Source: Cyanobacteria bacterium T3Sed10_344R1 (GTDB lineage Bacteria > Cyanobacteriota > Cyanobacteriia > Phormidesmidales > Phormidesmidaceae). Taken from it: a DNA stretch of 29,176 bases. Position numbers and translations under genes: made by a program. The stretch is taken from contig PXDR01000259.1 in the NCBI GenBank assembly GCA_003566335.1, positions 1 through 29,176 on the forward strand. Reading direction: 5' to 3'. Of this stretch, positions 5,751 to 24,616 are shown piece after piece. The stretch's first letter is position 1; each line of letters starts with the position of its first letter. The notes beneath the pieces were generated by a model. The model was not told the origin of the DNA and made no database searches. It saw nothing but the letters and a program-made list of their open reading frames with translations.

Positions 5751-5796
5751 GGAGGCAGAGCCTCCCCGGTGTACCCAGACAGAGTCTGGGCACGAG
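5751..5796 (-). repeat. REP-like double hairpin upstream of the RAYT gene
   Basis: GGAGGC-AGA-GCCTCC and CCCAGAC-AGA-GTCTGGG; its reverse complement aligns with 5130-5175. Confidence 0.75.
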
Positions 5797-5840
5797 ATGG
5801 CACTTACAATAAGTACAACTCCATCGCTCGCAGGCAAACC

Positions 5841-6425
5841 ATGATGGCTCAGGTGTTCTCTCCCCGCATCCACGAGGCCCAGGTCTTCCCCAACGTGGGT
5901 TGGCCCCAGTTTGAGGCGATTGATCGAGCTTTTGATGCCATCCCCGGCGTGCGACTGCGCTACCTCGACAACGCCCTCGAAATCATGCCCATCAGTGAAG
6001 ATCACGAAGACTTCAAAGCCATTCTGCGGTTGCTGCTGGAGGCTTACCTGCGGGCCAACGGCATCCGATTTTATGCTCGCGGTGGCCCCTCCCTGGGGGA
6101 TGAAGCCCTGGGTGCCCGCAGCGAGCCCGACGAGGCCTACAACCTGGGTAGCCGCAAGCCCTACCCCGACCTGGTGCTGGAGGTGGTGATCACCAGCGGC
6201 GGCATCGACAAACTGGAAGGCTACCGTCGTATGGGAGTGGCCGAAGTGTGGTTTTGGGAAGACGGGGTGCTAAACCTCTACGGACTGCGGGACGACGGCA
6301 GCGGCTACGACCAGCTCAACCAAAGTCGGCTGCTGCCCGACCTGCCTCTGGATTTGCTCTGTCGCTACGTCACCTACCACGACCAGTTCGATGCGGTGGA
6401 TGAGTTTCTGCGGCAACTTAGCTAG
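5841..6425 (+). CDS. Uma2-family (DUF820) endonuclease-fold protein
   Basis: RLRYLDNALEIMPISEDHE, SEPDEAY, PDLVLEVVITS, GVAEVWFW. ATG at 5841 preferred over the track start 5769, which lies inside the REP. Confidence 0.88.
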   Translation: MMAQVFSPRIHEAQVFPNVGWPQFEAIDRAFDAIPGVRLRYLDNALEIMPISEDHEDFKAILRLLLEAYLRANGIRFYARGGPSLGDEALGARSEPDEAYNLGSRKPYPDLVLEVVITSGGIDKLEGYRRMGVAEVWFWEDGVLNLYGLRDDGSGYDQLNQSRLLPDLPLDLLCRYVTYHDQFDAVDEFLRQLS

Positions 6426-8304: not shown

Positions 8305-8694
8305 ATGCCCCAATGGAAACTCTCAACCGAATTCACCTTTGACGCCGCCCACTCCATCCGCGACTACGATGGCCCCTGCGGGCGCATGCACGGTCACACC
8401 TACCGAGTCCGGATTGAGGCAACATCTAGCAAACTCCACTCCTCCCAGTACTGCCCCCACCCGGTCATGGTGGCCGACTTCCGCACCCTACGCTGGGCTA
8501 AACGCGACATGCTAAAAGGAGGGCTTGACCACTGCGTGCTCAACGACGTGCTGCCCGAAGGCTACGAAACCACCGCCGAGATGATCGCCCAGTACATCTA
8601 CGACAAAACCAAAACAGACCTGCCAGAAGGGGTGAAGCTCAAGGTTTGCGTCTCCGAGACACCCAACTCCTGGGCCGAGTATGAAGGCGACTGA
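8305..8694 (+). CDS. queD: 6-carboxytetrahydropterin synthase
   Basis: FTFDAAH, CGRMHGHTY, LDHCVLND, TTAEMIA, VSET; first gene of a queD-E-C run. Confidence 0.92.
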   Translation: MPQWKLSTEFTFDAAHSIRDYDGPCGRMHGHTYRVRIEATSSKLHSSQYCPHPVMVADFRTLRWAKRDMLKGGLDHCVLNDVLPEGYETTAEMIAQYIYDKTKTDLPEGVKLKVCVSETPNSWAEYEGD

Positions 8695-9343
8695 GATGAG
8701 CGTCCCGGCCACGACCTCTCTGATCGCTGAGTTGCCACCAGCGCTGGCCCAAACTTTGCCGATAGTGGAAATGTTCCATTCCATTCAGGGAGAAGGTGCC
8801 TGGGCCGGCACCAATGCCTTCTTCATTCGGTTAGGGGGCTGCGATGTCGGCTGTCCCTGGTGCGACACCAAACAGTCCTGGAGCCCGAAGCGCCACCCCC
8901 AGCGGGAGGTAGGCGAACTGGTCACCGCCGCCAAAGCCGCAAACCCTCAGATTGTAGTCATTACCGGCGGCGAGCCGCTGATGCATGACCTGACGGTGCT
9001 CACCCAGCAACTCAAAGCGGCTGACCTCCAGGTTCACCTGGAAACTTCCGGTGCCCACCCCTTCAGCGGCAGCTTCGACTGGGTCACCTTTTCCCCCAAA
9101 CGGTTCAAGCCCCCCCACCCCAGCATCTACCCCCAAGCCAGCGAACTCAAGGTCGTCGTCGCCGACGAGACTGACCTGGCCTGGGCCGAGCAGCAGGCGG
9201 CCCAACTGTCCCCAACCGTGGACAAACGACTCCAGCCCGAGTGGGAAACGCCGGGGAGTCAGCAGATTGCGTTCAACTTCGTCTTGAAGAATCCAGGGTG
9301 GCGCGTTAGCCTGCAAACGCATAAGTTCTTGGGAGTCCAATAG
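8681..9343 (+). CDS. queE: 7-carboxy-7-deazaguanine synthase (radical SAM); alternative start at 8696
   Basis: [26 protein letters not shown] (CxxxCxxC), [23 protein letters not shown]. Confidence 0.95.
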
Positions 9344-9345
9344 CC

Positions 9346-10068
9346 ATGCCCCAGCCCAAAGCGATTGTTCTGTTGTCGGGGGGGCTAGACTCAGCCACCG
9401 CCGCGGCCCAGGCCATGGCCGACGGCTACGCCCCCATCGCCCTCTCCTTCCGCTATGGCCAGCGCCACGAGCGGGTGCTGGAGGCGGCTCGCCACGTCGC
9501 CGCCCACCTGGGCATTGCCGCCCACCACATCATGGACGTGAACCTTGCCCAGTGGGGCGGATCTTCCCTCACCGACCTGAACGAGACCCTGCCCCAGGAC
9601 GGGGTACAGACCGGGGCGATTCCCTCCACCTACGTGCCAGGGCGCAACACCGTGTTCATTGCCATTGCCCTCTCCCTGGCCGAGGCCAAAGGGGCCGAGG
9701 CCATCTACCTGGGCATCAATGCTGTGGACTATTCGGGCTACCCCGACTGTCGGCCCGAGTATTTGGCGGCCTTTCAACAGCTGGCCCAGCTCTCCTCCAA
9801 GGCCGGGCTAGAGGGCAAAGCCCCTGAGCTAGTGGCCCCCCTAGTAATGGACTCTAAGGTCGATATCGTCCACCGTGCCCTCGGCCTGGGGGTACCCATC
9901 GAAAAAACCTGGTCTTGCTATGAGGGGGACGAGGAACCCTGCGGACGCTGTGATTCTTGCCGAATTCGCGACAAAGCCCTGATTGACGCCGGACGTCCCG
10001 ATCTGGCAACGTTGGTAGGCCGAAGACTATACGCCCAGGAGACCGAATGCCCAACCCCCGTGTCTTAG
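9346..10068 (+). CDS. queC: 7-cyano-7-deazaguanine (preQ0) synthase
   Basis: [41 protein letters not shown]. Confidence 0.96.
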
Positions 10069-12140
10069 TCATTACATCCTGCACTGGGGAGAAGCGCTGC
10101 AAGCCAGAAAACCAGCTCAGACTCGACGATTTTCGAGACCCAAGTCGGCTGCGCGATCGCCAATCTGAACTGGCCGAGTACGCCTGTCAAGCCGGTGAAA
10201 TATATACGGGTATGCAGCATCTACGGCTGATGGAGGGTGTCCAGGCGTTGCGGGAAGCTTTGGGAGTCGATGCATTGGAGGTCGAAATCCTCTCCGCTGG
10301 GTATGGGCTCATTCCAGAGCACCAGAAGATCGTCCCCTACGAGGTCACATTCAATGGGATGAAGAGCCAGGAGGTGGATGAGTGGGCACAACATTTGGGC
10401 GTCCAAGACGCGGTTGAGCAGCGACTGGAGTCGGCAGACCTGGTCTTTTTTTTGTTGGGTGATAACTATTTGCGATCGCTCCAACTGCCCATCCAAACCC
10501 GACCCGACCAAACCCTGGTTTTCCTGGCCTCCGGAGGTTCTGCCAAGAAGCTGCCCGACCTGGCCGCCAAGACGTTTGTGCTGCCCCTCTCCAACCAGGA
10601 GGCAAAGCGTTACCGATACGGTTTGGTAGGGCTGAAAGGCTTTCTCTTCAAGCAGTTTGCCGAAGCTGTGGTAGTTAAACCTGAATTACTGAATCAGGTC
10701 AAAACTAATCCAGAGATCTTTCAGCAGATTATCGACGGCGAAGTTGATCAGCCCTCTGAGCAGTTGGCTTTAACTTCTCTGCTAGACCAGGTACCCACTA
10801 CTCCTAAAGCCTCAAACACTAGCCAGAAGACAACAACTGGTCGGTCTAGCAAAGACGAATTCTTGCCCATTCCCGATGTGCCACCGGCAGCTAATATCCA
10901 CCTGGGAATGCAGTACTACATTCCAGAATGGGATGACCACGTAGACCCCAACTACGACTTCCTAAACGATCGCCTCACCCCAGGGCGTGATCCCCACCAC
11001 GATGAGGTCTATGCCCACCAGATCTACGACGCCCCCAACTACGACGGCATTCTGGTGTCGAAGGTGGTGGTGGACAGCAGCAAGAAAAAGCGAGCACGGG
11101 TCGAGGCAGTTGGCATCCACGACTTCATCCGATATCAGGGGCCGGTCATGGGTGACTGTGGAGCCTTTGGCTACGTCAAAGAGGAAGAGCCTCCTTACAA
11201 TACGGTCGAAATTCTGGACTACTACCAGAACCTTGGCTTTGACTATGGCGTTAGCATCGACCACCTAATCGTCGGTCCTTTTGCTGTACCTGGTATTCGA
11301 GAAAAGCGGTACGAGCTGACTATGAAGAACGCCCAGGAGTTCTTCGAGAAGCATCAGGCTGGGGACTACACGTTCACTCCCATAGGGGTCGCCCAGGGTT
11401 GGAACCCTGAAACCTATGCTGAATCGGTAAAAGAGAACATTCGCGTGGGGTACGACTACATTGCCCTGGGGGGGCTGGCCCGAGCCCAGAGCCGAGAAAT
11501 TGTGGAGATTATGCAGGAGGTGCGGCCCCACCTCACCCCCAACATTCGACTCCACCTGTTTGGGGTGGCTCGGATCAACGCGATTCCGGTATTTCGGCAT
11601 CTGGGCATTACTAGCTTCGACTCGGCCAGTCCCCTGCGGCGAGCCTGGTTGGGTTCTGGGGCAAACTACCACACTGTTTCCAGCAAGATGTATACGGCAG
11701 TGCGGATTCCGCCCGTGGATGGCCATGGGGTGCGGGTGAAGCGGTTGATCGAGGCGGGGGTGGCTGAACGGGACACGTTGAAAGGCCTAGAGCAGAAAGC
11801 GTTGAAGGCGCTGCGGGCCTTTGACCAGGGGGAGTTGGGCCTGGAAGAGGCCCTAGAGTCGTTGCTAGCCTACGACGAACTGCTGGAGCTGCCCAAGGAT
11901 GGCAAGGCTGACCCGGTGGAGCAGGCCAAGCGGCGAGTGAAGCATGAGCGCATGTATCGGGATTTGCTGCGCGATCGCCCCTGGCAGCAGTGCAACTGCG
12001 TGATCTGCCAGGAGGTCGGGGTCGAGGTGGTGATCTTTCGGGGGAACGATCGCAACCGGCGGCGGGGGTTCCACAATACCCGAGCCTTTTATCTGCGGTT
12101 TCAGGAATTGCTGGCGAAGCTGAAGGAAGAGGACACTTAG
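10047..12140 (+). CDS. dpdA: DpdA-type DNA 7-deazaguanine transglycosylase with an N-terminal DUF6884/YaaA-like domain
   Basis: TGT part: [83 protein letters not shown], as in bacterial DpdA. N-terminal ~230 aa: [25 protein letters not shown]. Overlaps queC by 22 nt. Confidence 0.85.
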
Positions 12141-12709
12141 GCGAGCTGGTTGAGGTTCTCGTAGAGATCGGCAATATCGCAGGTTAGGCCAATGCTGCTG
12201 AGTTCGATGGTGTCGCCGCTCCGAAAGACCTGGGGGAGCCACAGGTTGTCAGACTTGCGCTGGAACCGTTCGACCAAAATCTGCTTTTGGTGAACCAGCA
12301 CGTACTCTTCCAAGGTGGGTATAGCTTTGTAGTCGGAGAACTTATCGCCTCGGTCGAAGGCCTCGGTGGAGTCGGAGAGCACCTCGACGATGAGCTTGGG
12401 ATAGAGGATAAAGTCTTCAGCAGAGGCGCGATCGCGCTCATCGCAAGTAACTGCCAAATCCGGGTAGTAGAAGAGGTTAAGGCTGGGCAGGCGCACCTTC
12501 ATATCCACAGCGTAGGCAATGCAGCCGGTGCCCCGCAGATGGCTGACTAGGAGGGCCGAGAGATTGCCCGTGATGATGACATGGGCCTTGCTGGCCCTGG
12601 CCATAGCGACCATCTGCCCCTGTAAATACTCGTGCTTGATGGGGCTGATGCGCTCAAGTTCCAAATAGTCTTCTGGAGTGAAGTAGGCGTGGCTTTTGCT
12701 CAGGATCAT
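12137..12709 (-). CDS. Uma2-family (DUF820) endonuclease-fold protein
   Basis: EDYLELERISPIKHEYLQG, FYYPDLAVTCD, PKLIVEVLSDSTEAFDRGDKF, LEEYVLV. Confidence 0.92.
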   Translation of the reverse strand: MILSKSHAYFTPEDYLELERISPIKHEYLQGQMVAMARASKAHVIITGNLSALLVSHLRGTGCIAYAVDMKVRLPSLNLFYYPDLAVTCDERDRASAEDFILYPKLIVEVLSDSTEAFDRGDKFSDYKAIPTLEEYVLVHQKQILVERFQRKSDNLWLPQVFRSGDTIELSSIGLTCDIADLYENLNQLA

Positions 12710-13168: not shown

Positions 13169-13738
13169 CTACGGACTGCCCAGCAGCCGCTCTAAGGCTG
13201 GGAAAAGGAGCTGAAGGGTTTTGCCGTCGATGGATTGGATGCGATCGCACAACCACCGTCGCCGCCCCACCAGATCGGCTGGGGTCGGCGATAGAAAGAG
13301 CGGTTCCGTGTCCAGATCCACCGAGTGCAGCTCAAAAATTTGTCGGAGTTTGGCCTGGTGGGTCTTCTCCGGCACATGCTCCCGTTTCTTCCACTTGGAG
13401 AGGGTGCCCGGCGTAACGCCCAGGGCCTCGGCCAGTTCACCGTTCTCCCCCCGTTGGAGAGTCGAGAGTAGGTACAGCACGTTCTCTTGCCAGAGGTTGA
13501 GCCCACTGTCAGCCAGCAGGTTAGCGAACTGGAGGTCTTCCTCAGGGAGGCCCAGGGCAGTGGCCAGCGATCGCAGCTCCTTCACCGTCGGCTGGCTGCC
13601 CTTCAGGAGTTCGACAGATCTACCGGCATCGGCACCCACCCACTCAGCCACTCGCTCAGCCCAAATCTGCCGGGGCTGCCCTTGTCGCCACATCAAAAAA
13701 CATAGGTTGTGGGCGACAGTGCTCATCGCTAGCAACAA
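13169..13738 (-). CDS. Xre/Cro-like helix-turn-helix regulator, probably with two HTH-like units
   Basis: ELAEALGVTPGTLSKWKK is a typical Xre HTH; PTVKELRSLATALGLPEEDL is a second Xre-like segment; divergent from the helicase operon. Confidence 0.7.
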   Translation of the reverse strand: MLLAMSTVAHNLCFLMWRQGQPRQIWAERVAEWVGADAGRSVELLKGSQPTVKELRSLATALGLPEEDLQFANLLADSGLNLWQENVLYLLSTLQRGENGELAEALGVTPGTLSKWKKREHVPEKTHQAKLRQIFELHSVDLDTEPLFLSPTPADLVGRRRWLCDRIQSIDGKTLQLLFPALERLLGSP

Positions 13739-13823
13739 AATCTCTCAAACTTATTTGATGTTGAAGCTTCTAAACGACAAAAATACTGCATAATTTTTGT
13801 GTTTACCAGCCTACGGTCATCCT

Positions 13824-16181
13824 ATGATAGCCAGTCCTCCCCAATTCAGCGCATCTGCTGTGGCCACCCCGGTCCAGCAGGCAGTCCTGGATCGGGATCT
13901 GCTCAATTCTGGTTTTCACTGCATCCTGCAAATGCCCACGGGCAGCGGCAAAACCTGGCTGGCTGAGCAGGCCATTGGGCACACCCTGGCCCAGGGGAAG
14001 CGGGCCATCTATCTCACCCCCCTACGAGCCCTGGCCGATGAGCTGTGCGATCGCTGGCAGCGGCGCTTTGTGTCCCACCCGGTGGGCGTCTTTACTGGCG
14101 ACTACGCTAGCGGCCAGTATCCCGTCTCCTTCCAAAACGCTCAGCTGCTGGTGATGACGCCAGAAAAGCTGGATGCCTGTACTCGCCATTGGCGATCGCA
14201 CTGGAGTTGGCTCCCCACCGTCGATCTGATTGTGGTAGACGAGTTTCACCTGCTGGGCGACCCCAACCGAGGCCCCCGCCTAGAGGGGGCGCTGCTGCGG
14301 ATGCTGCGCCTCAACCCGTTCCTGCGTATTTTGGGACTCTCGGCTACCCTGGGCAATCGGGTGGAGTTAAGTGACTGGCTGGGAGGGGTAGAGTACGCAT
14401 CGAGCGATCGCCCTATTCCCCTCCAGTGGTCTACGGTCCACTACAAAAAGGCTGACGACAAACCGGCTCTACTGCTGCGGGAGGTGCGGCGTAACCTCGC
14501 CCAGGGCGGCAAAAGCCTTGTCTTTGTGCAGAGTCGTCGCCGAGCGGAGGCCCTGGCCAACCAGCTCCAGGACGCTGGCCTGCGGGTGACCCACCACCAC
14601 GCTGGGTTAGACCACCAATCTCGCCGCCAAGTGGAATCGGACTTTCGCACGGGTCAGCTTGACGTCCTGGTGGCCACCGCCACCCTAGAGATGGGCCTGA
14701 ACTTGCCCGTGCGCCAGGTTATCCTCTACGATCTGCAGGGCTTTGATGGGCAAGACTTTGTGCCGTTGCCGGTCAATAGTGTGTGGCAGCGGGCAGGCCG
14801 AGCCGGTCGCCCGGGCCTGGATAAGTTCGGCGAAGTGGTGCTGATTGCCCCCATCTGGGGACAGGTGGGGCACTACCCCCAAGGCCAATTCGAGCCGCTG
14901 GTGTCTGGGCTGAGTCAGCCTGCGGCTCTGGCCGAACAAATTGTGACCGAGGTGGCCTGCGGCCTGAGCTGTACTGAGGCGCAGCTAGCGGCTAACTTTA
15001 GCCATAGCCTGGCAGCTCGGCAGGGCCGACTGTCCTCCATCCGCCAGCTAGTGGACGAGATGCTGACGGCGGGCATGTTGACCACGGTCGAAGATGGGCG
15101 ACGCATCCTGCTGCGGGGCACTCGGCTGGGCCACGTTGCGGTGCGCCACATGCTGCGGCCCCAGACAGTGCTGCTTTTTCGGCGGGTGTTAGAGCAGTAT
15201 CCCCAGCTCACGTTTCTAGACTTGCTGCTGGTGGCGGCCAGCAGTTCCGACTGCCAGCCTCTGATTCCGGTGGACTTCGAGCAGCTCGACGATCTGGCGG
15301 AGGCTCTCGGTGAAGAACCGTCTGTACTGCTGTCGTTGTCGGAGGTGGGCCTGACACAACTGCTGGGTATTGAGGGCAAACGTCTGCTGGCCGCTATCCA
15401 AACGGCCTTGGTGGGCCGCACCTGGACTCGGACCGGCGATGGGGCGATCGCCGCCGAAACCCACGGCTGCTATGCCTTTGAGGTGCAACGGCTGCGAGAC
15501 TCGTTACAGCGACTGTTGGCTGCCATGGTCGATTTGTGGTCCGTCTCCCAAGAGGGGGAGGTGCCTCCCTCGGAGGGACCGTCGCTGCTGGAGCAGATGC
15601 GGGTACTGGAGAAGATGGTGGCCTGCGGCCTAGATGAGCAGGCCGTGACCCTGACCATGGTGCCCGGACTAGGGGCAAAGCTGGCCCGGCAGCTCAAGGA
15701 AGCTGGTATCCAAGATGTGGAGGATTTGGCCCTGACTGATCCCAGCGACCTACTGGCGGTGCCGGGGGTGGGGCAAAAGCGGGCTGAAAGCTGGTTAGCT
15801 GCCGCTGAGGAGATGGTCGATGGGCACCTTTCGGCGTTTCGCTACCGAGAAGAGGCTTCAGCGAACCGGTTCTGCCCTTCTGACTGGCCCCCCGACGTTG
15901 ACCCATACCGGCTTCGGCGCGCCTTGGACTTAAAGGTAGTCGGACAGGATGGCAATCTGTTCCGCGTTGTGGGGGGGCTTGATCCTCACATCGTGTGGTT
16001 TCGTCAGGGTGGGTTTGTGTGCGACTGCCCCGATTCTAAGCGCCACACCTGTAAGCACATTTTACAGGTGCGGCTGTTTCGGGGAGACGCCCAACTGCGC
16101 CGCCTGGCCCAGGCCTTGTCCGCAGAGAGCAACCCAGACACCCTCGATATCTATAGTCTGTGGTGGAGGGGGAACCGATGA
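13824..16181 (+). CDS. Ski2/Hel308-like SF2 helicase with C-terminal HhH repeats and a SWIM-like zinc finger
   Basis: MPTGSGKT, PLRALA, VDEFH, LSATLG, HHAG, ATATLEMGLNLP, QRAGRAGR; VPGLGAKLARQL / VPGVGQKRA (HhH); CDCPDSKRHTCKH (SWIM-like). ATG 13824 preferred over TTG 13797. Confidence 0.88.
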   Translation: MIASPPQFSASAVATPVQQAVLDRDLLNSGFHCILQMPTGSGKTWLAEQAIGHTLAQGKRAIYLTPLRALADELCDRWQRRFVSHPVGVFTGDYASGQYPVSFQNAQLLVMTPEKLDACTRHWRSHWSWLPTVDLIVVDEFHLLGDPNRGPRLEGALLRMLRLNPFLRILGLSATLGNRVELSDWLGGVEYASSDRPIPLQWSTVHYKKADDKPALLLREVRRNLAQGGKSLVFVQSRRRAEALANQLQDAGLRVTHHHAGLDHQSRRQVESDFRTGQLDVLVATATLEMGLNLPVRQVILYDLQGFDGQDFVPLPVNSVWQRAGRAGRPGLDKFGEVVLIAPIWGQVGHYPQGQFEPLVSGLSQPAALAEQIVTEVACGLSCTEAQLAANFSHSLAARQGRLSSIRQLVDEMLTAGMLTTVEDGRRILLRGTRLGHVAVRHMLRPQTVLLFRRVLEQYPQLTFLDLLLVAASSSDCQPLIPVDFEQLDDLAEALGEEPSVLLSLSEVGLTQLLGIEGKRLLAAIQTALVGRTWTRTGDGAIAAETHGCYAFEVQRLRDSLQRLLAAMVDLWSVSQEGEVPPSEGPSLLEQMRVLEKMVACGLDEQAVTLTMVPGLGAKLARQLKEAGIQDVEDLALTDPSDLLAVPGVGQKRAESWLAAAEEMVDGHLSAFRYREEASANRFCPSDWPPDVDPYRLRRALDLKVVGQDGNLFRVVGGLDPHIVWFRQGGFVCDCPDSKRHTCKHILQVRLFRGDAQLRRLAQALSAESNPDTLDIYSLWWRGNR

Positions 16182-17110
16182 CCCAAACCAGCGTGGGCAC
16201 TCAACGGGGGCGATCGCTCTCAACGGCTCGGGGCAAAATACCTTTTCCGGCGTACCTGCCCGTCACCACCTTTGGCAAAAAGTATCCCCTCGACGACCTC
16301 ATTCGTCCCTACCTGCCTCGGCTAGCGGCGGCGGTTATGGTGAGCTACTACTATGCCCAGCAAATGGAGCCGGAGCAGCGCCCCAACCTGCCGATGTGGG
16401 TAGACTCTGGGGGCTTTGCTGCTCTGTTTGAGGGGGCCAAGATTCTCAAGAAGAGGGACGTTGGACTACTGGAGATCACCAACGGCGATGTGGTTGAGAG
16501 TCTTCACCCCAAGGATATTCTGGCGTTTCAGGAGGCTCATGCCGATGTGGCCCTGACCCTAGACTTTCCCATTCCCCCCAGCCTGGGTCTAAAGGAGAGC
16601 CAGCGGCGGCAGCGGCTAACGATCGCCAACGCGCTCTGGGCCCTGGCCAATCGTCGTCGCCAAGACCTGCGGCTCTACGCCTGCATCCAAGCCTGGGATG
16701 TGGCCTCGGCCCAGGCCTGTGCCGAGGCCTATGCTGGGAAGGGATTTGATGGGGTGGCCCTGGGCGGCCTAGTGCCTAGGGCCAAGGATGCCGACTTGGT
16801 GCTATCTATGGTGCGTGCCGTGCGGGAGGTCGTTGGAGATCTACCGATCCATGTATTGGGCTTAGGTAATCCCAAACTGTTGACACAGATCTACGAGGCC
16901 GGAGCCGACTCGGTAGACAGTAGTTCCTACGTTCAGTACGCCGCCAACGGTCGGCTTTGGTCTAACCCTAATCTGGAGCTGAAGGATCCCTCACCCACGG
17001 ATCGGCTGCACCTGGCTTTGTGTAATCTAGCTCTGGCGACAGGGCGGACACTTCCCCTTTCGGCGGCCCAACTGACCTTTGCTACGCTACGGTCAGCACA
17101 GGGGGGGTAA
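16178..17110 (+). CDS. tRNA-guanine transglycosylase-fold protein (archaeosine-TGT-like catalytic barrel only)
   Basis: VDSGGF, TLDFPIPP, CIQ, VALGGLVP, IHVLGLG, GADSVDSSSYVQYA. ATG 16178 overlaps the helicase TGA (ATGA), with a GGAGG upstream. Confidence 0.85.
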   Translation: MTQTSVGTQRGRSLSTARGKIPFPAYLPVTTFGKKYPLDDLIRPYLPRLAAAVMVSYYYAQQMEPEQRPNLPMWVDSGGFAALFEGAKILKKRDVGLLEITNGDVVESLHPKDILAFQEAHADVALTLDFPIPPSLGLKESQRRQRLTIANALWALANRRRQDLRLYACIQAWDVASAQACAEAYAGKGFDGVALGGLVPRAKDADLVLSMVRAVREVVGDLPIHVLGLGNPKLLTQIYEAGADSVDSSSYVQYAANGRLWSNPNLELKDPSPTDRLHLALCNLALATGRTLPLSAAQLTFATLRSAQGG

Positions 17111-17115
17111 AGGCT

Positions 17116-19440
17116 ATGCGTTCTATCTTCTGCGGCACATCGGGCACCGACCCTCATCCTGGGCCTTTGGGTTGGGATGGGCTCGACCTCAGTGCTCCCT
17201 GGCCTGCGGTGTTGGATCTGCTGTGTCCCCAGCGATCGCTGCGCCCAGTACAGTGGGCCGCCCTGAGCGACCACCAGATTCTGGAGACTAACCAAAACCT
17301 GATTGTCTCCGCGCCGACCAATAGCGGTAAAAGCTTAGTGGGTTGGCTGATTTTGCTGGAGGCTTTGTGTCAGGGGAAGCGGGCCATTTTGCTGGAACCT
17401 CTGCGGGCACTGGCTCGGCAAATGGCCGATGAGCTGGAGGTGGCGTTGCCGAAGCTCAACCTCATTTTCGAGAAACGCTCGAATCTGAAAATCTCCACCG
17501 GTGACTACCGCATGGACGATGAGTTACCCTTTGGGCCACCTCCAGGGGGGGAGCTGGTGGTAGCAACCCCAGAGCGACTAGAATCCCTATTGCGGAACCC
17601 AGCCAATGGGCCATGGTTTGAGACGGTGGGGGCGGTTTGTGTGGATGAGGCTCACCTGATCAGCTCGCCCAGGCGGGGACCGACGCTGGAGTACTTGCTG
17701 ACCTCGTTGCTGTGTTTGCCGGTTCCTCCCCGTTTGGCGTTGCTGTCGGCGACGTTGGGTAATGTGGAACGGGCGCAGACCTGGCTGGCTCCTTGCTCGG
17801 TGGTCAGTGTGACCGAACGGCAGCCGCCCCTGGAGAAGTGGGTGGTGGCGTTGGAGGAGGGGGAAGATGCCAACGAGGTGGCGATCGCCCACGTTGCCGA
17901 GACCCTGAAAACGGCTGAAGCCCAAATCCTTATCTTTGTCTATCAGACTCAGTCGGCCCAGAAGCTGGCCCAAGCGATCAACGGCACGGTGGAGGGGGCC
18001 AACGCCCTGGCCTACCATGGCCAGATGAGCCAGGGGCAGCGGCAACAGGTGCAGCAGGCGTTTCTAGCGGGGGAGAGTCGTGCGATCGTCACCACGACTG
18101 CCCTGGCGCTGGGGATGAACTTACCTGCGACCCATGTCCTGATCCGCGATACCACTTTCCCGGGGGTAGGTCGGCTCGATAGCGCAGAGCTGTTGCAGAT
18201 GATGGGGCGAGCGGGCCGGGGTACCCAATCGGGAAAGGCGACTGTGCTGCTGCGTCCCAACGATAGCTGGGCAGAGGCGGATCTGGTGGCAGCGCTGCAG
18301 GCGGAGGTGCTGCCGAACTTTGCCTCGGCGTTTGAGCTAACCAGCAGGCGGATGGCCCAGGGACCACTGCCGTCCGGTACGGCTCAGGTGGCCGCTTTGC
18401 TCTCCCGCCATCCCGAAACGGGACTTTCTCAACCGTCTATCGGCCAGTTTTTGGAGAAGTCGTTGGGGGGACAGACCCTGGTTGGGCAGGTGCCGGCGGC
18501 CCTGCGGTGGCTGGAGTCGGAGACGCTAGCGTACCTAGAGCCCAACCAAAAGACTTACCACCTCACTGTCCTGGGCCAACGAGCAACCCTGGCTGTTTTG
18601 CCTCTGCCGCTGGCCGCTGGGTTGGCTCGCCTGCTGCGAGACTTGATGACGATTGACCCGGAAGATGGGTTGTTGGCGGACTGGCGATCTCTGGACCATC
18701 TGCTGGTATTGGATCTGCTGTCGGAACAGACGCCTAACCTACGTCGCTATAGCGGAAAGCTGGCTAGCCAACTGGAGAGTTGGTGCGAGGCGAACCCTAG
18801 CCAAACGCCACTACTCTTTCGCAAATGGATCTGGGGGACGGTGGGCCAGTCTCGGGCGGCGGAGATTTTGGGGTCGTTGGGAGTCGTGGCTGAGAAGCCT
18901 GGCCAAGGGACTGACCAATGGGCGCACCAGATGGGCTACCTGGCGATGCTGCGGGCTATGGTGCTGGGGCTGCGATCGCAGGGGGTTCCCATTGCTCAGC
19001 TAGAGCGACAGTACGGCCTCAAAAATCTGGAGGGCATCGAGGAACGCTGGCGCGACGATATGCTCTGGAAGTTGTCTGGGGTGGCTAAGCTGCTGGAAAT
19101 TCGCACGTTCTACTATCATCTAAAGGAAGACTGCCAGGCCAGTCCGGAACGGGTGAAGCGGGTGAAGCGATGCCTGAAGCGGCTGCGTTACCAGACCTAC
19201 GAGTTGCGGGAAGGGCTCAAGTACTGTTCTCCACTCGGCCACTTGCTGAGCGACATTCGCCGCATGCTGCCCCATCAAGAGCGAAAACTGGGAGTCCAGT
19301 CGATCCGCAGGTTGGAAGAGGCTGGTTTGTGTACTCCTCAGGCTGTTGTTGCCTTGGGTGTAGAAGATCTCAAACGACTTGGCTTAAGTAGCCTTTTCTC
19401 CCAGCAGATCGTTGCTTACTTCAAGTCACGCTTTCGCTAA
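17116..19440 (+). CDS. Second Ski2/Hel308-like SF2 helicase
   Basis: APTNSGKS, PLRALA, VDEAH, LSATLG, YHGQ, TALALGMNLP, QMMGRAGR; 5 nt after the TGT stop. Confidence 0.88.
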   Translation: MRSIFCGTSGTDPHPGPLGWDGLDLSAPWPAVLDLLCPQRSLRPVQWAALSDHQILETNQNLIVSAPTNSGKSLVGWLILLEALCQGKRAILLEPLRALARQMADELEVALPKLNLIFEKRSNLKISTGDYRMDDELPFGPPPGGELVVATPERLESLLRNPANGPWFETVGAVCVDEAHLISSPRRGPTLEYLLTSLLCLPVPPRLALLSATLGNVERAQTWLAPCSVVSVTERQPPLEKWVVALEEGEDANEVAIAHVAETLKTAEAQILIFVYQTQSAQKLAQAINGTVEGANALAYHGQMSQGQRQQVQQAFLAGESRAIVTTTALALGMNLPATHVLIRDTTFPGVGRLDSAELLQMMGRAGRGTQSGKATVLLRPNDSWAEADLVAALQAEVLPNFASAFELTSRRMAQGPLPSGTAQVAALLSRHPETGLSQPSIGQFLEKSLGGQTLVGQVPAALRWLESETLAYLEPNQKTYHLTVLGQRATLAVLPLPLAAGLARLLRDLMTIDPEDGLLADWRSLDHLLVLDLLSEQTPNLRRYSGKLASQLESWCEANPSQTPLLFRKWIWGTVGQSRAAEILGSLGVVAEKPGQGTDQWAHQMGYLAMLRAMVLGLRSQGVPIAQLERQYGLKNLEGIEERWRDDMLWKLSGVAKLLEIRTFYYHLKEDCQASPERVKRVKRCLKRLRYQTYELREGLKYCSPLGHLLSDIRRMLPHQERKLGVQSIRRLEEAGLCTPQAVVALGVEDLKRLGLSSLFSQQIVAYFKSRFR

Positions 19441-19477
19441 AAACTATGTGTTGATCAACTTGCAACTAAGTAGTAGC

Positions 19478-19483
19478 TATAAT
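19478..19483 (+). promoter_or_regulatory. Possible -10 element upstream of the 383-aa ORF
   Basis: Perfect TATAAT 41 nt upstream of ATG 19525; no correctly spaced -35 seen. Confidence 0.3.
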
Positions 19484-19524
19484 CCTAATCTTTAGTTTTC
19501 ACTGACACCTCTGAGCATTAAGAC

Positions 19525-20676
19525 ATGACAATCGATCGCATAAAAGAGCTGGAAGTCTTCTTGAATCGCAACTACTCCAAATACTTGAAGCTTCATGATA
19601 AGTGGTTCAGGAGTGATTGGGCTGCCAATGACTTCACTGAAGAAAGCTTTGTCTTCTTCAATGAAATTACATGCTTGAAAGTGGTTAACCCGCATGTAAA
19701 ATTACTTATCTCGAATATATGGCCTATCGATCAGAATTTCCACAACTTTTTATTAGAACTCTGTTCATACAGTCTCAGTATCAAGCGCCCAGACAGTGCC
19801 AGATATGATTTTGAGCGCATGAAATTCGTTAATTGGTGCATGATTGCCTACTGGCTAGCCTGGTATGAGCTTGTCGAAATTGAACTAGAGCCTTTAAGAC
19901 TTCTGAAAATACCAGTAAACAAGTATAACTTAGATCTTCGGCTTTTAGCGCTTGAGGCTAAGGTATTAGAACACGCTAGCTGGAATAAGATAAAACAAGA
20001 AAATCATCACCGTTATTCTCCGCTTTGGCAGAAAAACTTTGAGTCATCCGCACTTAAAGCAAAAGTTTTACATCGGATGCTGAAGATTGCAAAGGAATTT
20101 CACAAATATTATAAAATATCTCCAGATCGCGCCTTTCGGATTTGGCGTTTATGCATATTGGAGATTCGGGAAGATGACAGAGATGCCACTCTTCAACCAT
20201 CTCAGCCTAAAAACAAGCTTCAGGATGGGATCGAAAAAACATATAAAATACTAAAATCTGGCAAGAACCCGTTTGAGCCAAATGAGAAAACGAAGTATTT
20301 ATACGTTTTTTTCAGTCTCACCGAAAAAATCTTGGATGGAAAAAGCTTTCCGGCTAAGAAGTCAGGAGCATTTCAGGGTGATTTTTGGAAGCCGTTCTTG
20401 AAAGGAGTACTTAAGTTCACCCAGTTTTCCGAGGAGGATTCACCTAATCGGATCCCCTACGAGGTTAAAGATGCTCAGCTAAATAGACGACAGGGTAAAA
20501 GTCTATATAGAGTTCCCGTCCTAGATAGAGAGAGGCCTCGCTCAGCGGTAACGTCTTTCAGGATTCCTGGAAGGAGTATTGAAGGTAAGTTCGAGGTTCC
20601 GCTACCCCATAGAGCAGCTAGGGTTTTTGCTGTAGAGCATACTTCTGACCTTTCTGGAGACGATTACACTCCATAA
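19525..20676 (+). CDS. Hypothetical protein (AT-rich, no recognised family)
   Basis: 383-codon ORF in AT-rich DNA, unlikely by chance, followed by a terminator. Confidence 0.7.
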   Translation: MTIDRIKELEVFLNRNYSKYLKLHDKWFRSDWAANDFTEESFVFFNEITCLKVVNPHVKLLISNIWPIDQNFHNFLLELCSYSLSIKRPDSARYDFERMKFVNWCMIAYWLAWYELVEIELEPLRLLKIPVNKYNLDLRLLALEAKVLEHASWNKIKQENHHRYSPLWQKNFESSALKAKVLHRMLKIAKEFHKYYKISPDRAFRIWRLCILEIREDDRDATLQPSQPKNKLQDGIEKTYKILKSGKNPFEPNEKTKYLYVFFSLTEKILDGKSFPAKKSGAFQGDFWKPFLKGVLKFTQFSEEDSPNRIPYEVKDAQLNRRQGKSLYRVPVLDRERPRSAVTSFRIPGRSIEGKFEVPLPHRAARVFAVEHTSDLSGDDYTP

Positions 20677-20732
20677 AGTACGCAAGCTTACCTAGTAGCC
20701 GCAACCAGTCAACCTAAGGATTATTTTTCTAG

Positions 20733-20764
20733 AGCCTCGCAAGTCAATGCGGGGCTTTTATTTT
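20733..20764 (+). terminator. Rho-independent terminator
   Basis: Stem AGCCTCGCA / TGCGGGGCT (one G-T pair), 6-nt loop, then TTTATTTT. Confidence 0.75.
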
Positions 20765-20939
20765 AAGCGGCACAATCTACGGTAAGCCACCGGAGATTGT
20801 GAAGGCCTTTGACAGCAAGGGTTTCAGGGTTTACTACTTTTTTTGTTCAAATTTCCAGGCTTAAACCCTAGAGTACTTTCAGTATCTTCCAGGGTTCGTT
20901 TATTACCCTCTGGAGCTGTTCAAGCAATAGGAGAGACAA

Positions 20940-21344
20940 GTGAGTTGTAATTTTGAGTTGGCCACAACAGAGCAAGCCGCAGAAGTCCTAGGGTGTTCCA
21001 CGCACTGGCTCAAGAAACGTCGGCTCGACGGACAGCTACAGGAAGGAGTCCACTGGGTGCGAACTAATCAACGATCTATTCGCTACATAACGCCTCTCCT
21101 TAAGGACTACTTGAACAACAGAAACCAATTTTCAACCCATCGACAGTTTATTGTGAGCGACTTGATTTCTGATATTCCTTCTCTTAGCCCAAAAAACTAC
21201 AGCTATAGGAATAAAATTTTCGAGGTCATAAAGATTGCCAAAAAGATTCTTTTGCGTACAAGATTCCAAAAACATTCTTTTTTGAGGTTAGCTTGCCAGT
21301 CCAAATTCAAAAAACTCTTTCAGGCTATTTTTCGAATTATCTGA
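20940..21344 (+). CDS. Excisionase/MerR-like HTH protein, paralog 1
   Basis: LATTEQAAEVLGCSTHWLKKRRLDGQLQEGVHWVR; GTG start with AGGAGAG upstream. Confidence 0.65.
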   Translation: MSCNFELATTEQAAEVLGCSTHWLKKRRLDGQLQEGVHWVRTNQRSIRYITPLLKDYLNNRNQFSTHRQFIVSDLISDIPSLSPKNYSYRNKIFEVIKIAKKILLRTRFQKHSFLRLACQSKFKKLFQAIFRII

Positions 21345-21375
21345 GTTCAAGAAAATTACTACCTACCACAAAAAA

Positions 21376-21666
21376 ATGATGACTCAAGAATTTCAATTAG
21401 CTACAGCGAAACAATCTGCAGAACAATTAGGTTGTTCAGTTCACTGGCTGAAAAAGCTACGTCTTGACGGAAGGCTTCAGGAAGGCATCCATTGGGTGCG
21501 AATTGGCAAGCGATCAGTTCGCTACGTAACCCCTCTTCTAGTAGACTACTTTCGAAATCGACACCAACCTTCGGTTCACCAACATTTTGTCGAAAAATAC
21601 GTCGCTTCTTGGGAGTCGAATCAACCGAGTAGACCTGGTCGAAAGCCAAAGGCTTATAGAGCTTAA
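21376..21666 (+). CDS. Excisionase/MerR-like HTH protein, paralog 2
   Basis: LATAKQSAEQLGCSVHWLKKLRLDGRLQEGIHWVR; aligns without gaps with paralog 1 over about 65 aa. Confidence 0.7.
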   Translation: MMTQEFQLATAKQSAEQLGCSVHWLKKLRLDGRLQEGIHWVRIGKRSVRYVTPLLVDYFRNRHQPSVHQHFVEKYVASWESNQPSRPGRKPKAYRA

Positions 21667-21775
21667 ACGTATAACCCCTCAATACTTCTTTCGATAGGGA
21701 CTATCTACCTCCCTATCGAATCTTTGTTGCGTCATAAGTGTCTGAGCTATACAGCCTAATTCTGAAATCAGTCCC

Positions 21776-23086
21776 GTGAAGAAGACAAAGAAAGTAGACC
21801 TTTTGCCTGGAGATCCTTGTGGAAAAAGAATTTGTGAGATTTTCGGTAAATATCCATGGGAAACTATCCAAGCCAATGCACCTAAAGATCCATCGTCAAA
21901 ACCCAACTGGTTTACTAAAAAAGGGTACCCAGAACGATCAAGAGTCCTATGGCAGAGTTGGCAGGACACTAAAACTTTAATTGGTGTACGGTTTAGCAAA
22001 GAAACGTGCTACGGTCTCATCGATATTGATTGTGGCAGTAAATACTTAAATGCAGAGGATGTCGACGGAATTAAGGCAGGGCTAGAGACTATTGGCATTG
22101 TCAGAACCCTCACCATATCTTCAAGCTGGAGTCAGGGTATCCACCTTTATACTCCGTTCCCTGATTCGGTTGGGACTTTTAACCTTGCTGTTACGCTTGA
22201 ACAAGCCCTAGTCGCACAAGGCTTTGAAATCAAAGATGGGCAGCTAGAGATTTTCCCGAATCCTAAGACTTTTGGCTCCACAATTTTTATTGAATATAAA
22301 GCTCATCGCTTACCGCTACAGCCTAAAAGCGGTTCCTTTATTTTAGACGACGATCTCAATCCCGTCAGCGACAATCTTCCTCGCTTTCTTGAACTTTGGG
22401 ATCAGGCAGCACAAAGCCAGAATATGGATGAGTTAGCTCAGGCCCTGGCTATAGCTAGGGATAATAAACTAAAACACCCAAAAAGGCACAAGAAGGGCGT
22501 AAAAGCTCAGGAATGGGAGGCTAACTTAAAGACTGAAATTGATGAGGGTTGGACAGCTTTTGGGCAGACAAATCAATTGCTCAAAAGTATGTGCTGCTAT
22601 GGCCTTGTATTCAAAGGTCTAAGCGGCAAGGATTTGGTTGATGACGTGCTTCGTATGGTTGTAAATAGCCCAGGGTATGAGGAGTTTTGCCGACACCAGC
22701 ACGAGATTGAAAGGCGAATAAGGGCTTGGACCAATTCTGTAGAGAAGTTTTACTACCCCTACGGACAGTGGGAGCAAGCTAAAAGGCTTCAGTCGGCAGA
22801 AGAAAAAGTTCCTTCAAATCAGCTCAAGGCTAAGGAAGCACAGAATCGTATTCGTGAGGCTGTGAAAGTTCTACAGCAGTTGAAGATTTTTCCTCGCACA
22901 GCTAATGCTCGCAAAAAAGCTCTCGTTAGTCAAGGTGGCGTTAGCAGTAAAACTTTATACAAAAACCGAGAACTCTGGCATCCTGATTATCTCCAATCAT
23001 CAGAGGAGTGTAAACCGCTGGAAAAATCAGGGGTTTCAGAAGCTCTCAGAGAAAATCCAGCTCAAATAGATTTTTCAAAACCCTGA
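21776..23086 (+). CDS. Primase-polymerase (AEP)-like replication protein of a plasmid or integrative element
   Basis: GLIDID (DxD) and SSWSQGIHLY resemble AEP motifs I and II; EIFPN; context next to excisionase-like genes. Confidence 0.6.
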   Translation: MKKTKKVDLLPGDPCGKRICEIFGKYPWETIQANAPKDPSSKPNWFTKKGYPERSRVLWQSWQDTKTLIGVRFSKETCYGLIDIDCGSKYLNAEDVDGIKAGLETIGIVRTLTISSSWSQGIHLYTPFPDSVGTFNLAVTLEQALVAQGFEIKDGQLEIFPNPKTFGSTIFIEYKAHRLPLQPKSGSFILDDDLNPVSDNLPRFLELWDQAAQSQNMDELAQALAIARDNKLKHPKRHKKGVKAQEWEANLKTEIDEGWTAFGQTNQLLKSMCCYGLVFKGLSGKDLVDDVLRMVVNSPGYEEFCRHQHEIERRIRAWTNSVEKFYYPYGQWEQAKRLQSAEEKVPSNQLKAKEAQNRIREAVKVLQQLKIFPRTANARKKALVSQGGVSSKTLYKNRELWHPDYLQSSEECKPLEKSGVSEALRENPAQIDFSKP

Positions 23087-23395
23087 TGAAATAAGGGAAG
23101 TTTACACCAGAAAAAAATAATGAAGTGTTTTGCCCTCCGCAGGGAGGTAAAGGAATGAAGTGCAGGGGGGATGAACAGAGGATGTGATCTATACGTGGAA
23201 CAGGTGTAAAGGCCAGAAAAATCGTCGATTTGTTTGAAAAATTAGTTTTCGCAAGACCTTTCAGCTTGCGTGAACCTTGTCTGAGCCTGGCGCAGAGATA
23301 AATAAGACATCGTTGCGGTCAATAACGAAAGGGCTGCGTTTTACTCTACCTCTTGGTACCTTGTATCGTTAGCGGTACTAGAACAGAGGTTCTGG

Positions 23396-24616
23396 ATGAA
23401 GTTCGACCTCCACCTCCGATCGCAAGTCCGTGACCAGCTCAAGACGCTGGCCAGCGAGATGCAGGCGTGGCAAGCCCAGCCCCGCATCCAGCAAGACGAG
23501 GTCGAGCAGCTCAAGGCCGCGATCGCCACCTTTTCGCACACTACAGACCGAGAAACCCTGACCCTGGCCGGAGTGGACGGCAGCGGCGACTTCCCCCTCC
23601 TCAGCTATGCCGACTCCTTTGTCTATCTGGCTGTGGCCCAGGGCACTGCCTACCAAGCCGACCGACTCTGTGGGTTAAGAGAGGTCGCGATCGCCGCCGA
23701 GCCCATTTTCCAAACGGTCTGGCTCACCGAAGACAATATCATGTCTGACCAGGCGCTCGATCGCGCCTTTGGCGAGCTGGCTGGGATGGAGCCCCTGGCC
23801 GCCATTCAGGCCTCCGACTATCGCACCCTCAAGGCCCAAGTCGTCGGCAAACGCCTTAACCCCGATCAGCTTCTGGCCGAGCTAATTCGACCCAACGCCA
23901 GCGATACCGGCAACCTAGCGATCCAGCTTCGTTCGACAGCGGAGTTTGGGGCGGCCCTGCGGTTGCTGGAGGGGGAGGTGTTGCCCCAGTACCTGCTGGT
24001 CGATACCACCTTTTCGCTGCCGCTGGTCACTAACGCAGCCAATTCCCTGTTCTACGAGCACCTGAAGCGGTTGTGCTGTGTGAGGGCGCGATCGCAGGGT
24101 GTCGGATTTTTTGCGCTGTCCAAGTCCCACGGGCTACCCGCCATGGAGGTACTGGAAGACCTGGTGCGGGAGGTGCAGGGGCGAGAGCCGGGGCAGGCTG
24201 CCGAACACTGGTACCTGCGGATTCCGGAGCAGGTTAGGGATGGGTGGGAACTGTCGCTGACGGAGGGAAGACGGATTCCGCCGCCGGGGGTGGTGTCTTA
24301 CCTGGTGCGGTTCCACCGCACGACCCCCGTGATGCGGTTAGATATGGATCTGGGCTATTGGCAAACGGTGGTGAAAGGGGCCACTGAGGAGGAGACGCGA
24401 TCGCGAGAGTGCAAAATCTTTGAAGACCTCGACTACGCCTGCCACGACCAACGGGTCTACGGCTACCCCTACCCCATCAAGGCGGCCCACGGCCGGGCCT
24501 CCCTCACCCAGGCAGAACGGGTCGCGTTCCGGAAGCAGCTGGTCGCAGAGGCCGTGAAGCAGGGGATGAGCCCGGCCCTCTTCCGGGACCCCTCCCAGGC
24601 CACTGGCCACCGATAG
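23396..24616 (+). CDS. nurA: NurA-family nuclease
   Basis: LAGVDGSG, LLVDTT, ALSKS, GYPYPIKAAH; directly upstream of a HerA ATPase. Confidence 0.78.
   Translation: MKFDLHLRSQVRDQLKTLASEMQAWQAQPRIQQDEVEQLKAAIATFSHTTDRETLTLAGVDGSGDFPLLSYADSFVYLAVAQGTAYQADRLCGLREVAIAAEPIFQTVWLTEDNIMSDQALDRAFGELAGMEPLAAIQASDYRTLKAQVVGKRLNPDQLLAELIRPNASDTGNLAIQLRSTAEFGAALRLLEGEVLPQYLLVDTTFSLPLVTNAANSLFYEHLKRLCCVRARSQGVGFFALSKSHGLPAMEVLEDLVREVQGREPGQAAEHWYLRIPEQVRDGWELSLTEGRRIPPPGVVSYLVRFHRTTPVMRLDMDLGYWQTVVKGATEEETRSRECKIFEDLDYACHDQRVYGYPYPIKAAHGRASLTQAERVAFRKQLVAEAVKQGMSPALFRDPSQATGHR

Follow-up and report, generated by a model that had tools for sequence, protein, structure and literature searches.

A helicase–transglycosylase–helicase cassette beside dpdA

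We analysed a window of 29,176 nt, the whole contig PXDR01000259.1 of a 69.5%-complete metagenome-assembled genome of Cyanobacteria bacterium T3Sed10_344R1, in which a cassette of three plus-strand genes lies beside a gene for the DNA deazaguanine writer DpdA. The first gene encodes Hel1, a Hel308/Ski2-like DExH helicase of 785 aa with helix-hairpin-helix (HhH) and C-terminal SWIM zinc finger modules (13824–16181). It is followed by the gene for TGT2, a zinc-less transglycosylase of 310 aa with the fold of tRNA-guanine transglycosylases (TGTs; 16178–17110), and by that for Hel2, a paralogous DEAH helicase of 774 aa without the SWIM finger (17116–19440). The TGA stop codon of Hel1 (16179–16181) is overlapped by the ATG of TGT2 (16178–16180) in an ATGA, and the TAA stop of TGT2 (17108–17110) is separated by 5 nt from the Hel2 ATG at 17116. 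A first-pass annotation of the window had described the three genes as coupled by such an overlap and gap, and the exact coordinates agree. It had also placed the start of the operon about 1.7 kb past dpdA; the distance from the end of dpdA (12140) to Hel1 is 1.68 kb, and the gene is a dpdA by its NCBIfam DpdA score of 485 bits.

TGT2 matches the Pfam family TGT (PF01702) with 72.9 bits. Its AlphaFold2 model (predicted local distance difference test, pLDDT, 89.7) retrieved bacterial, human and archaeal TGTs in Foldseek searches with an E-value of 1e-14 and template modelling (TM) scores of 0.65–0.75, which bears out the earlier claim that the middle gene is a second transglycosylase. The two catalytic Asp residues, D76 and D247, do not vary and line up with the catalytic motifs of solved TGTs. 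Also invariant among the 24–30 aligned sequences are DSGGF, LDFP, Q171, GGLVPR and D-S-S-S-Y, motifs whose aligned counterparts in the archaeal TGT (arcTGT) from P. horikoshii are the general-base Asp, the base pocket (GGVVP) and the nucleophile D249 (FDSASY). None of these aligned TGT2 sequences has a CxCxxC...H zinc site. Among solved structures, the same arcTGT (1iq8) is the closest match to TGT2 by sequence, and the two have GGxVP, FGxGxP and DxxDSxSY motifs in common, which predicts binding of guanine and preQ0; P. horikoshii arcTGT inserts preQ0. In contrast to arcTGT, TGT2 lacks the zinc site and the C-terminal domains that bind tRNA, which leaves a bare 310-aa barrel, and its coupled or fused partner is a DNA-type helicase. 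Judged by its residues, TGT2 looks like an active transglycosylase with a preQ0-type pocket.

The relationship of TGT2 to DpdA is distant. With the NCBIfam DpdA equivalog (cut-off 200), TGT2 reaches only 44.4 bits and is therefore under the bDpdA family threshold. When aligned by hhalign with the DpdA domain of the island, it showed 22% identity over 144 profile columns, and the DpdA domains of the islands keep the CxCxxC...H zinc site. This identity together with the zinc-site difference rules out a recent duplicate of dpdA and marks TGT2 as an old DpdA paralogue. Alongside bDpdA and the phage enzymes DpdA1–4, it appears to represent another bacterial subfamily of DNA-type transglycosylases. 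RefSeq labels the cassette genes only "DEAD/DEAH box helicase" and "tRNA-guanine transglycosylase", and JGI labels many of the 300-aa TGT2 homologues "helicase", a name probably carried over from fused helicase–TGT relatives.

Both helicases match the Pfam families DEAD and Helicase_C, and Hel1 additionally matches HHH_5; two helicases, the first with HhH repeats and a SWIM-like finger, are what the annotation had reported. The top NCBIfam matches of Hel1 are archaeal Hel308-type models (1e-92 to 1e-61), and since these scores stay under the equivalog cut-offs, Hel1 is a Hel308 relative and not an orthologue. It has the features that define Hel308/Ski2-like helicases of superfamily 2 (SF2), namely a DExH core, two RecA domains and a C-terminal HhH domain. 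A SWIM-type CxCx8-11CxH finger was present in 36 of 36 Hel1 orthologues checked (31 adjoining TGT2 and five filed among other helicases); the same script check found none in the Hel2 sequences. In PADLOC, Hel1 and Hel2 matched only generic SF2 models of the Hachiman HamB, BREX BrxHI and Shango SngC type. Their similarity to DpdE/DpdF-type SF2 proteins was weak and ranked under their HamB and BrxHI scores.

Conservation and natural fusions of the Hel1–TGT2 pair

A large protein collection held 1,065 TGT2 homologues at E ≤ 0.001, and a 50%-identity representative library held 125 TGT2 clusters at E ≤ 1e-30. We gathered loci from one-genome-per-species contigs (41 loci) and from several other sources, and mapped their genes by tblastn and clustering. 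Where enough flanking sequence was available, Hel1 immediately precedes TGT2 on the same strand in 36 of 39 loci. Such loci span at least eight phyla (Cyanobacteriota, Bacteroidota, Pseudomonadota, Acidobacteriota, Verrucomicrobiota, Planctomycetota, Bacillota, Myxococcota/Desulfobacterota and Chloroflexota), and TGT2 identity between phyla is still 57–65%; more distant relatives of the cassette occur in Deinococcota. Hel2 was found in 31 of 43 loci, and several of the remainder are interrupted by contig ends. Its position varies: it lies downstream of TGT2 in most cyanobacterial loci, the window included, and upstream, behind the gene for the small regulator-like protein S195, in most of the non-cyanobacterial phyla. 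The Hel1–TGT2–Hel2 arrangement is not due to chance. Conservation of the triplet, as proposed from the window, stands in that the gene set recurs across phyla, but the core is the Hel1–TGT2 pair and Hel2 shifts between loci.

The pair also occurs as one polypeptide. In P0386 (1004 aa), the domains DEAD, Helicase_C, HHH_5, SWIM and TGT follow each other in the order of the overlapping genes of the window. The reverse order, TGT–DEAD–Helicase_C, is found in P0428, P0443, P0448, P0457 and P0475 (943–1025 aa), three of which have HHH_5 too, and a shorter protein, P0460 (568 aa), consists of TGT–DEAD. In P0504, a match to the TGT2 profile is followed by helicase domains. On a plasmid of Deinococcus gobiensis, a remnant open reading frame (ORF) encodes a TGT2-like domain together with a Hel1-like RecA1 domain, and on a D. 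ficus plasmid, the genes for a TGT2-like and a Hel1-like protein share 4 nt. These natural fusions are the strongest new evidence that Hel1 and TGT2 work as one machine, and from single chains in both domain orders, the pair is the predicted functional core of the cassette.

We did not find the cassette in any of 400 other genomes sampled from the phylum of the window, a count that shows rarity only; this patchy distribution points to horizontal transfer. A phage origin of TGT2 was unsupported, with no match in INPHARED and one solo TGT2 relative in IMG/VR, which is 42% identical and has no helicase. A solo homologue is also encoded in Nostoc sp. MS1 (L003, AP023442), where it is 62% identical, adjoins DnaB and has no helicase partner. 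Its plasmid- or phage-like surroundings contain a PF23859 "DpdA" protein, two DNA methyltransferase-type genes (MT-A70 and DNA_methylase) and a DUF488 gene.

Deazaguanine genes and the surrounding island

Upstream of the cassette on the plus strand are three genes for preQ0 supply and a DNA writer. They are queD, for 6-carboxytetrahydropterin synthase (8305–8694; Pfam PTPS 104 bits, NCBIfam QueD), queE, for a radical-SAM 7-carboxy-7-deazaguanine (CDG) synthase (8681–9343; NCBIfam QueE models, Pfam Radical_SAM), and queC, for preQ0 synthase (9346–10068; Pfam QueC 240 bits). The gene at 10047–12140 encodes a canonical-type DNA deazaguanine writer of 697 aa, in which DpdA is full-length and takes up the C-terminal 400 residues (288–687; NCBIfam DpdA 485.4 bits at a cut-off of 200, PADLOC DpdA 429 bits). 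Residues 44–160 match DUF6884 with 45 bits, and PADLOC gave weak DpdC matches (1e-8 to 1e-5). DUF6884 has been named as the DpdC domain (bioRxiv 10.1101/2025.02.24.639861), so we read the protein as a DpdC-like domain fused to DpdA (a DpdC–DpdA fusion). A longer homologue, P0190 (1205 aa), combines DndB, TGT and DUF6884 domains.

We found both the cassette and DpdA in 24 of the 30 loci or genomes assessed, often with queDEC as well. A bona fide DpdA was encoded in nine of the 10 genomes searched whole, on the same contig as TGT2 and 10–16 kb from it, in frames of 682–745 aa; eight scored 438–495 bits and the ninth 422 bits summed over two matches. At least 10 further loci contain DpdA within the locus itself. 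The co-occurrence with dpdA and queCDE suggested by the first-pass annotation was borne out in these cases, but the cassette is not tied to DpdA, as six genomes have TGT2 without it. Three of the DpdA-less loci have preQ0 or preQ1 genes adjoining TGT2: folE2, queD, queE and queC in L016, where a SNF2–SWIM helicase is present too; queD, queE and queC in L033, with PD-(D/E)xK and UvrD; and folE2, queE, queC and a queF-like gene in L041 from Verrucomicrobia. The queF-like gene directly follows queC (L041:13358–13807) and hints that the base inserted by some TGT2 enzymes may be preQ1 or a different derivative rather than preQ0. Between TGT2 and the que genes of L016 (3874–4812) and L033 (13722–14693), which belong to different phyla, lies a gene for a protein of 312–323 aa without a Pfam match; this could be a further base-modifying enzyme.

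DpdB (NF041060) was not found in the window's own 69.5%-complete genome, and nothing scored above the cut-off in five of five related genomes that carry the island. The same DpdC–DpdA fusion, with queDEC, adjoins canonical DpdE/DpdF/DpdG/DpdH-type genes in Leptolyngbya sp. GGD (L050) and Aliterella atlantica (L051). Within 10 kb, L050 has no TGT2 and no DndB/DpdB-type gene; L051 has no TGT2 genome-wide and no DndB/DpdB-type family listed within 10 kb of dpdA, though no search aimed at DpdB was made in that genome. From these neighbourhoods, the fused DpdC–DpdA writer seems to manage without DpdB.

The cassette and the writer are part of an island of about 20 kb that comprises DpdC–DpdA, often queDEC, a helix-turn-helix (HTH) gene and a NurA–HerA–UvrD nuclease block. 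The HTH gene of the window encodes S195, a protein of 189 aa with a C-terminal Xre-type HTH (Pfam HTH_3), and is divergent from Hel1 (13169–13738, minus strand). Homologues with 27–42% identity occupy the same divergent position in 28–29 of 43 loci, and S195 probably regulates the cassette. Between S195 and Hel1 lies an inverted repeat (13777–13800) with perfect 8-bp arms around an 8-nt spacer, which is a weak candidate for the S195 operator; as a single short repeat in an AT-rich spacer, it could be there by chance.

Downstream of Hel2, the plus strand encodes a NurA-like nuclease (23396–24616; weak Pfam NurA match), a HerA-type ATPase (DUF87; 24626–26413), a UvrD-type superfamily 1 helicase (26621–28984) and the 5′ part of an RNase_T/DEDDh-like exonuclease ORF that is interrupted by the contig end (28917–29176). 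The NurA-like protein has syntenic homologues in the islands of other phyla (38–64% identity), and the NurA, HerA and UvrD genes together are 38–89% identical to syntenic genes of related islands, which places them in the same unit as the triplet. In most loci, the block consists of a PD-(D/E)xK nuclease, UvrD, X590 (a protein of about 600 aa without a Pfam match), HerA and the NurA-like protein, is usually transcribed towards the cassette, and in many cases is followed by the DpdC–DpdA fusion and que genes. The block of the window runs in the same direction as the triplet, unlike that of its closest relative, L005, which runs towards it. The X590 and PD-(D/E)xK genes are not on the window contig, and the DEDDh exonuclease ORF occupies the place that the PD-(D/E)xK nuclease has in other islands. 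No PADLOC model matched S195, X590, the PD-(D/E)xK or the NurA-like proteins above noise.

The island of the window is split by an AT-rich block of orphan ORFs of 383, 134, 96 and 436 aa (19441–23380; GC 0.41–0.45 compared with about 0.6). These have no Pfam or PADLOC match and no homologue in any related island (w383 and w436 in none), and because related islands lack the block, it is probably an insertion. Across genomes, islands are found on plasmids and among defence genes (VMAP–MoxR–vWA, toxin–antitoxin genes, DarT, GmrSD and CRISPR). Gene content indicates that deazaguanine islands are modular, the supply genes, the DpdC–DpdA writer, the helicase–TGT cassette and the nuclease block combining variously.

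Proposed helicase-powered base exchange and competing readings

We favour, at a probability of about one in two, a reading in which Hel1–TGT2 is a helicase-powered DNA guanine transglycosylase within a Dpd-like modification–restriction island that lacks DpdB. Hel1, with its Hel308-like core and SWIM finger, would use ATP to open DNA or translocate along it and present guanines to TGT2, which would swap guanine for a 7-deazaguanine base, most likely preQ0. Hel2 would be an accessory paralogous motor. The queDEC genes would supply preQ0, the DpdC–DpdA fusion would be a second, canonical-type writer and S195 the regulator, and the NurA–HerA–UvrD–exonuclease block would most likely degrade DNA without the mark, a defence role suggested by context. 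That DNA is the substrate is suggested by the Hel308-type helicase partner with its HhH and SWIM modules, by the DNA enzymes in the neighbourhood and by the location of the islands on plasmids and among defence genes. The preQ0/preQ1 genes beside what is the sole DNA-type transglycosylase of its genome, the intact catalytic residues and the arcTGT-like pocket argue that TGT2 itself inserts 7-deazaguanine. The first-pass annotation had left three mechanisms side by side; the comparative data favour the writer among them, and excision of guanine from invading DNA and sensing of modified phage DNA are not favoured over it.

Several observations weigh against the proposed helicase-powered writer. 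Complex prediction for Hel1(205–785) with TGT2 gave an ipSAE of 0.00 in three runs, which provides no support, though it is not evidence against binding. A tblastn search with TGT2 against 50,697 phage genomes (INPHARED, E 1e-5) found no match and hence no precedent in phage hypermodification. The proposal leaves unexplained why a full island should have two writers, and the adjacency of que genes in the three DpdA-less loci could partly be coincidental. By position, the TGT2 cassette and nuclease block seem to hold the place of restriction genes, as a comparison with L050 and L051 suggests. By analogy, S195, which tracks nuclease-bearing islands, resembles the controller proteins of restriction–modification systems that gate the dangerous half.

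These last two points would also fit a restriction effector. Here, Hel1 and Hel2 would scan or unwind incoming DNA, and TGT2 would attack unmodified guanines at the sites that DpdC–DpdA converts in the host, leaving abasic sites or covalent enzyme–DNA intermediates for degradation by the NurA–HerA–UvrD–nuclease block. The DpdC–DpdA fusion is indeed paired either with DpdE–H or with the TGT2 cassette and nuclease block, the Xre-type S195 divergent from Hel1 accompanies nuclease-bearing islands as controllers accompany restriction genes, and TGT chemistry proceeds through a covalent Asp–C1′ intermediate, established for bacterial TGT by trapped intermediates such as 1q2r and 7nq4. We nevertheless consider an effector unlikely: the sequences never vary in the general-base Asp of DSGGF or in the arcTGT-like pocket that would hold the 7-substituent, neither of which a pure glycosylase would need, self DNA would be unprotected in the six genomes that have TGT2 without DpdA, preQ0/preQ1 genes lie beside TGT2 in three, and minimal Hel1–TGT2 modules carry no nuclease. 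If true, a restriction transglycosylase would amount to a new chemistry of restriction, with a writer-type fold as the weapon. A helper of DpdA seems more doubtful again. TGT2 and Hel1 would then replace the DpdB ATPase, either by opening DNA or by TGT2 pairing with DpdA as QTRT2 does with QTRT1. Gedara et al (2023; PMC10164549) suggested that DpdB may open DNA in a helicase-like manner by hydrolysing ATP, which would suit such a replacement, as would the absence of DpdB wherever tested and the presence of DpdA and TGT2 together in 24 of 30 loci or genomes. A role as DpdB surrogate is weakened by the Leptolyngbya and Aliterella islands, in which TGT2 and DpdB-type genes are both missing from the 10 kb around the fused dpdA, and a helper is hard to reconcile with TGT2 in the six genomes without DpdA or with its full set of catalytic residues, which the non-catalytic QTRT2 does not have.

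The two remaining readings are less likely than these. TGT2 might modify RNA, or deazaguanylate a protein as reported for the TGT of type IV CBASS (cyclic-oligonucleotide-based anti-phage signalling system). Ski2-like helicases include RNA helicases, TGT2 is without the zinc subdomain of canonical nucleic-acid TGTs, and a preprint (bioRxiv 10.64898/2026.10.19.760177) cites an enzyme of the TGT family whose target is the N-terminus of a protein. A substrate other than DNA is nonetheless very unlikely, since the top matches of Hel1, with its HhH and SWIM modules, are Hel308 DNA helicases, all conserved neighbours are DNA enzymes, Pfam scans of the main (larger) ORFs of the window found no CD-NTase or SMODS family, and three related genomes keep a separate housekeeping bacterial TGT (498–515 bits). 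Least probable of all is DNA repair, with Hel308-type fork helicases, base exchange of damaged guanines and end resection by NurA–HerA–UvrD. It would agree with Hel308, NurA–HerA and UvrD being classic repair proteins and with the location of Deinococcus relatives near dnaN, ribonucleotide reductase and UvrD on megaplasmids, but not with the patchy distribution (none of 400 genomes of the phylum), the plasmids, the defence islands or the tight linkage to preQ0 synthesis and DpdA.

The helicase-powered writer would differ from known deazaguanine systems. The island resembles the canonical Dpd system of Salmonella enterica serovar Montevideo (dpdA–K; PMC10164549, PMC5699537) in its DpdA, adjoining preQ0 genes, a DpdC-type DUF6884 domain, many helicase and nuclease genes, size of about 20 kb and patchy, mobile distribution. 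It differs in being without DpdB and in the fusion of DpdC to DpdA; S195, Hel1, TGT2, Hel2 and NurA–HerA–UvrD–nuclease replace DpdD–K, and a zinc-less second TGT paralogue is added. PADLOC and NCBIfam found none of DpdD–K in the island, only the weak DpdE/DpdF-like SF2 similarity. Phage DpdA1–4 are likewise stand-alone TGT-family DNA transglycosylases that do not need DpdB, and insert preQ0, preQ1 or CDG after replication (Cui et al, 2023; PMC10516641), but no helicase partner has been described for them and the word "helicase" is absent from that paper.

Other defence systems share single components with the cassette. The BREX-related capture (BRC) system (HerA, GNAT, TGT; PMC12839542) also combines a TGT homologue with the HerA translocase, and its predicted defence island likewise has neither DpdB nor DpdC, but its defining components are PglZ, DUF6079 (BrxC-like), a STAND NTPase and DUF4007, and it has no Hel308-like helicases. 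These four families are absent from the window (Pfam) and related islands, so that only HerA and a TGT-type protein are shared. Hachiman and other systems with Ski2-like helicases are similar in that Hel1 and Hel2 score against HamB, BrxHI and SngC, but only the generic SF2 core is shared and those systems have no TGT; the scan of window ORFs found no HamA (DUF1837). Type IV CBASS, with its QueC-like, TGT-like and CD-NTase proteins, was also rejected, as the scan of the larger window ORFs gave no nucleotidyltransferase or SMODS match.

Our searches of the literature on transglycosylases, deazaguanine or DpdA together with helicases or nucleases found no description of the cassette or island. 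The GATOR-GC survey required dpdA and dpdB together and would therefore miss TGT2 islands. With no PADLOC system model covering it and no paper found that describes it, the cassette appears, as the first reading of the window had supposed, to be undescribed, and it is probably a helicase-coupled variant of 7-deazaguanine DNA modification and defence. How a transglycosylase reaches guanine in duplex DNA is an open question for Dpd, and a TGT fused to a Hel308-type helicase offers a direct model. A helicase-driven DNA base exchanger might also be of use in site-directed DNA labelling.

The window encodes two Uma2-family proteins (putative restriction endonuclease-like; 12137–12709 and 5769–6425). 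The gene at 12137–12709 is wedged between dpdA and S195, a position at which the cyanobacterial plasmids L046 and L047 have nothing. In Trichocoleus (L053, GCA_014695385.1), a NurA–HerA–700aa–UvrD–SACS/NOV_C block that is 59–77% identical to the window genes stands alone, in a genome without TGT2 or DpdA, where the housekeeping bacterial TGT is the sole match to the TGT family. The nuclease block may form an independent system. The L053 block adjoins a locus resembling a TniQ/Csc CRISPR-associated transposon. Among cultured carriers, Picosynechococcus sp. PCC 73109 (NZ_CP014001) and Nostoc sp. NIES-3756 (pNOS3756_2) have the island on a plasmid.

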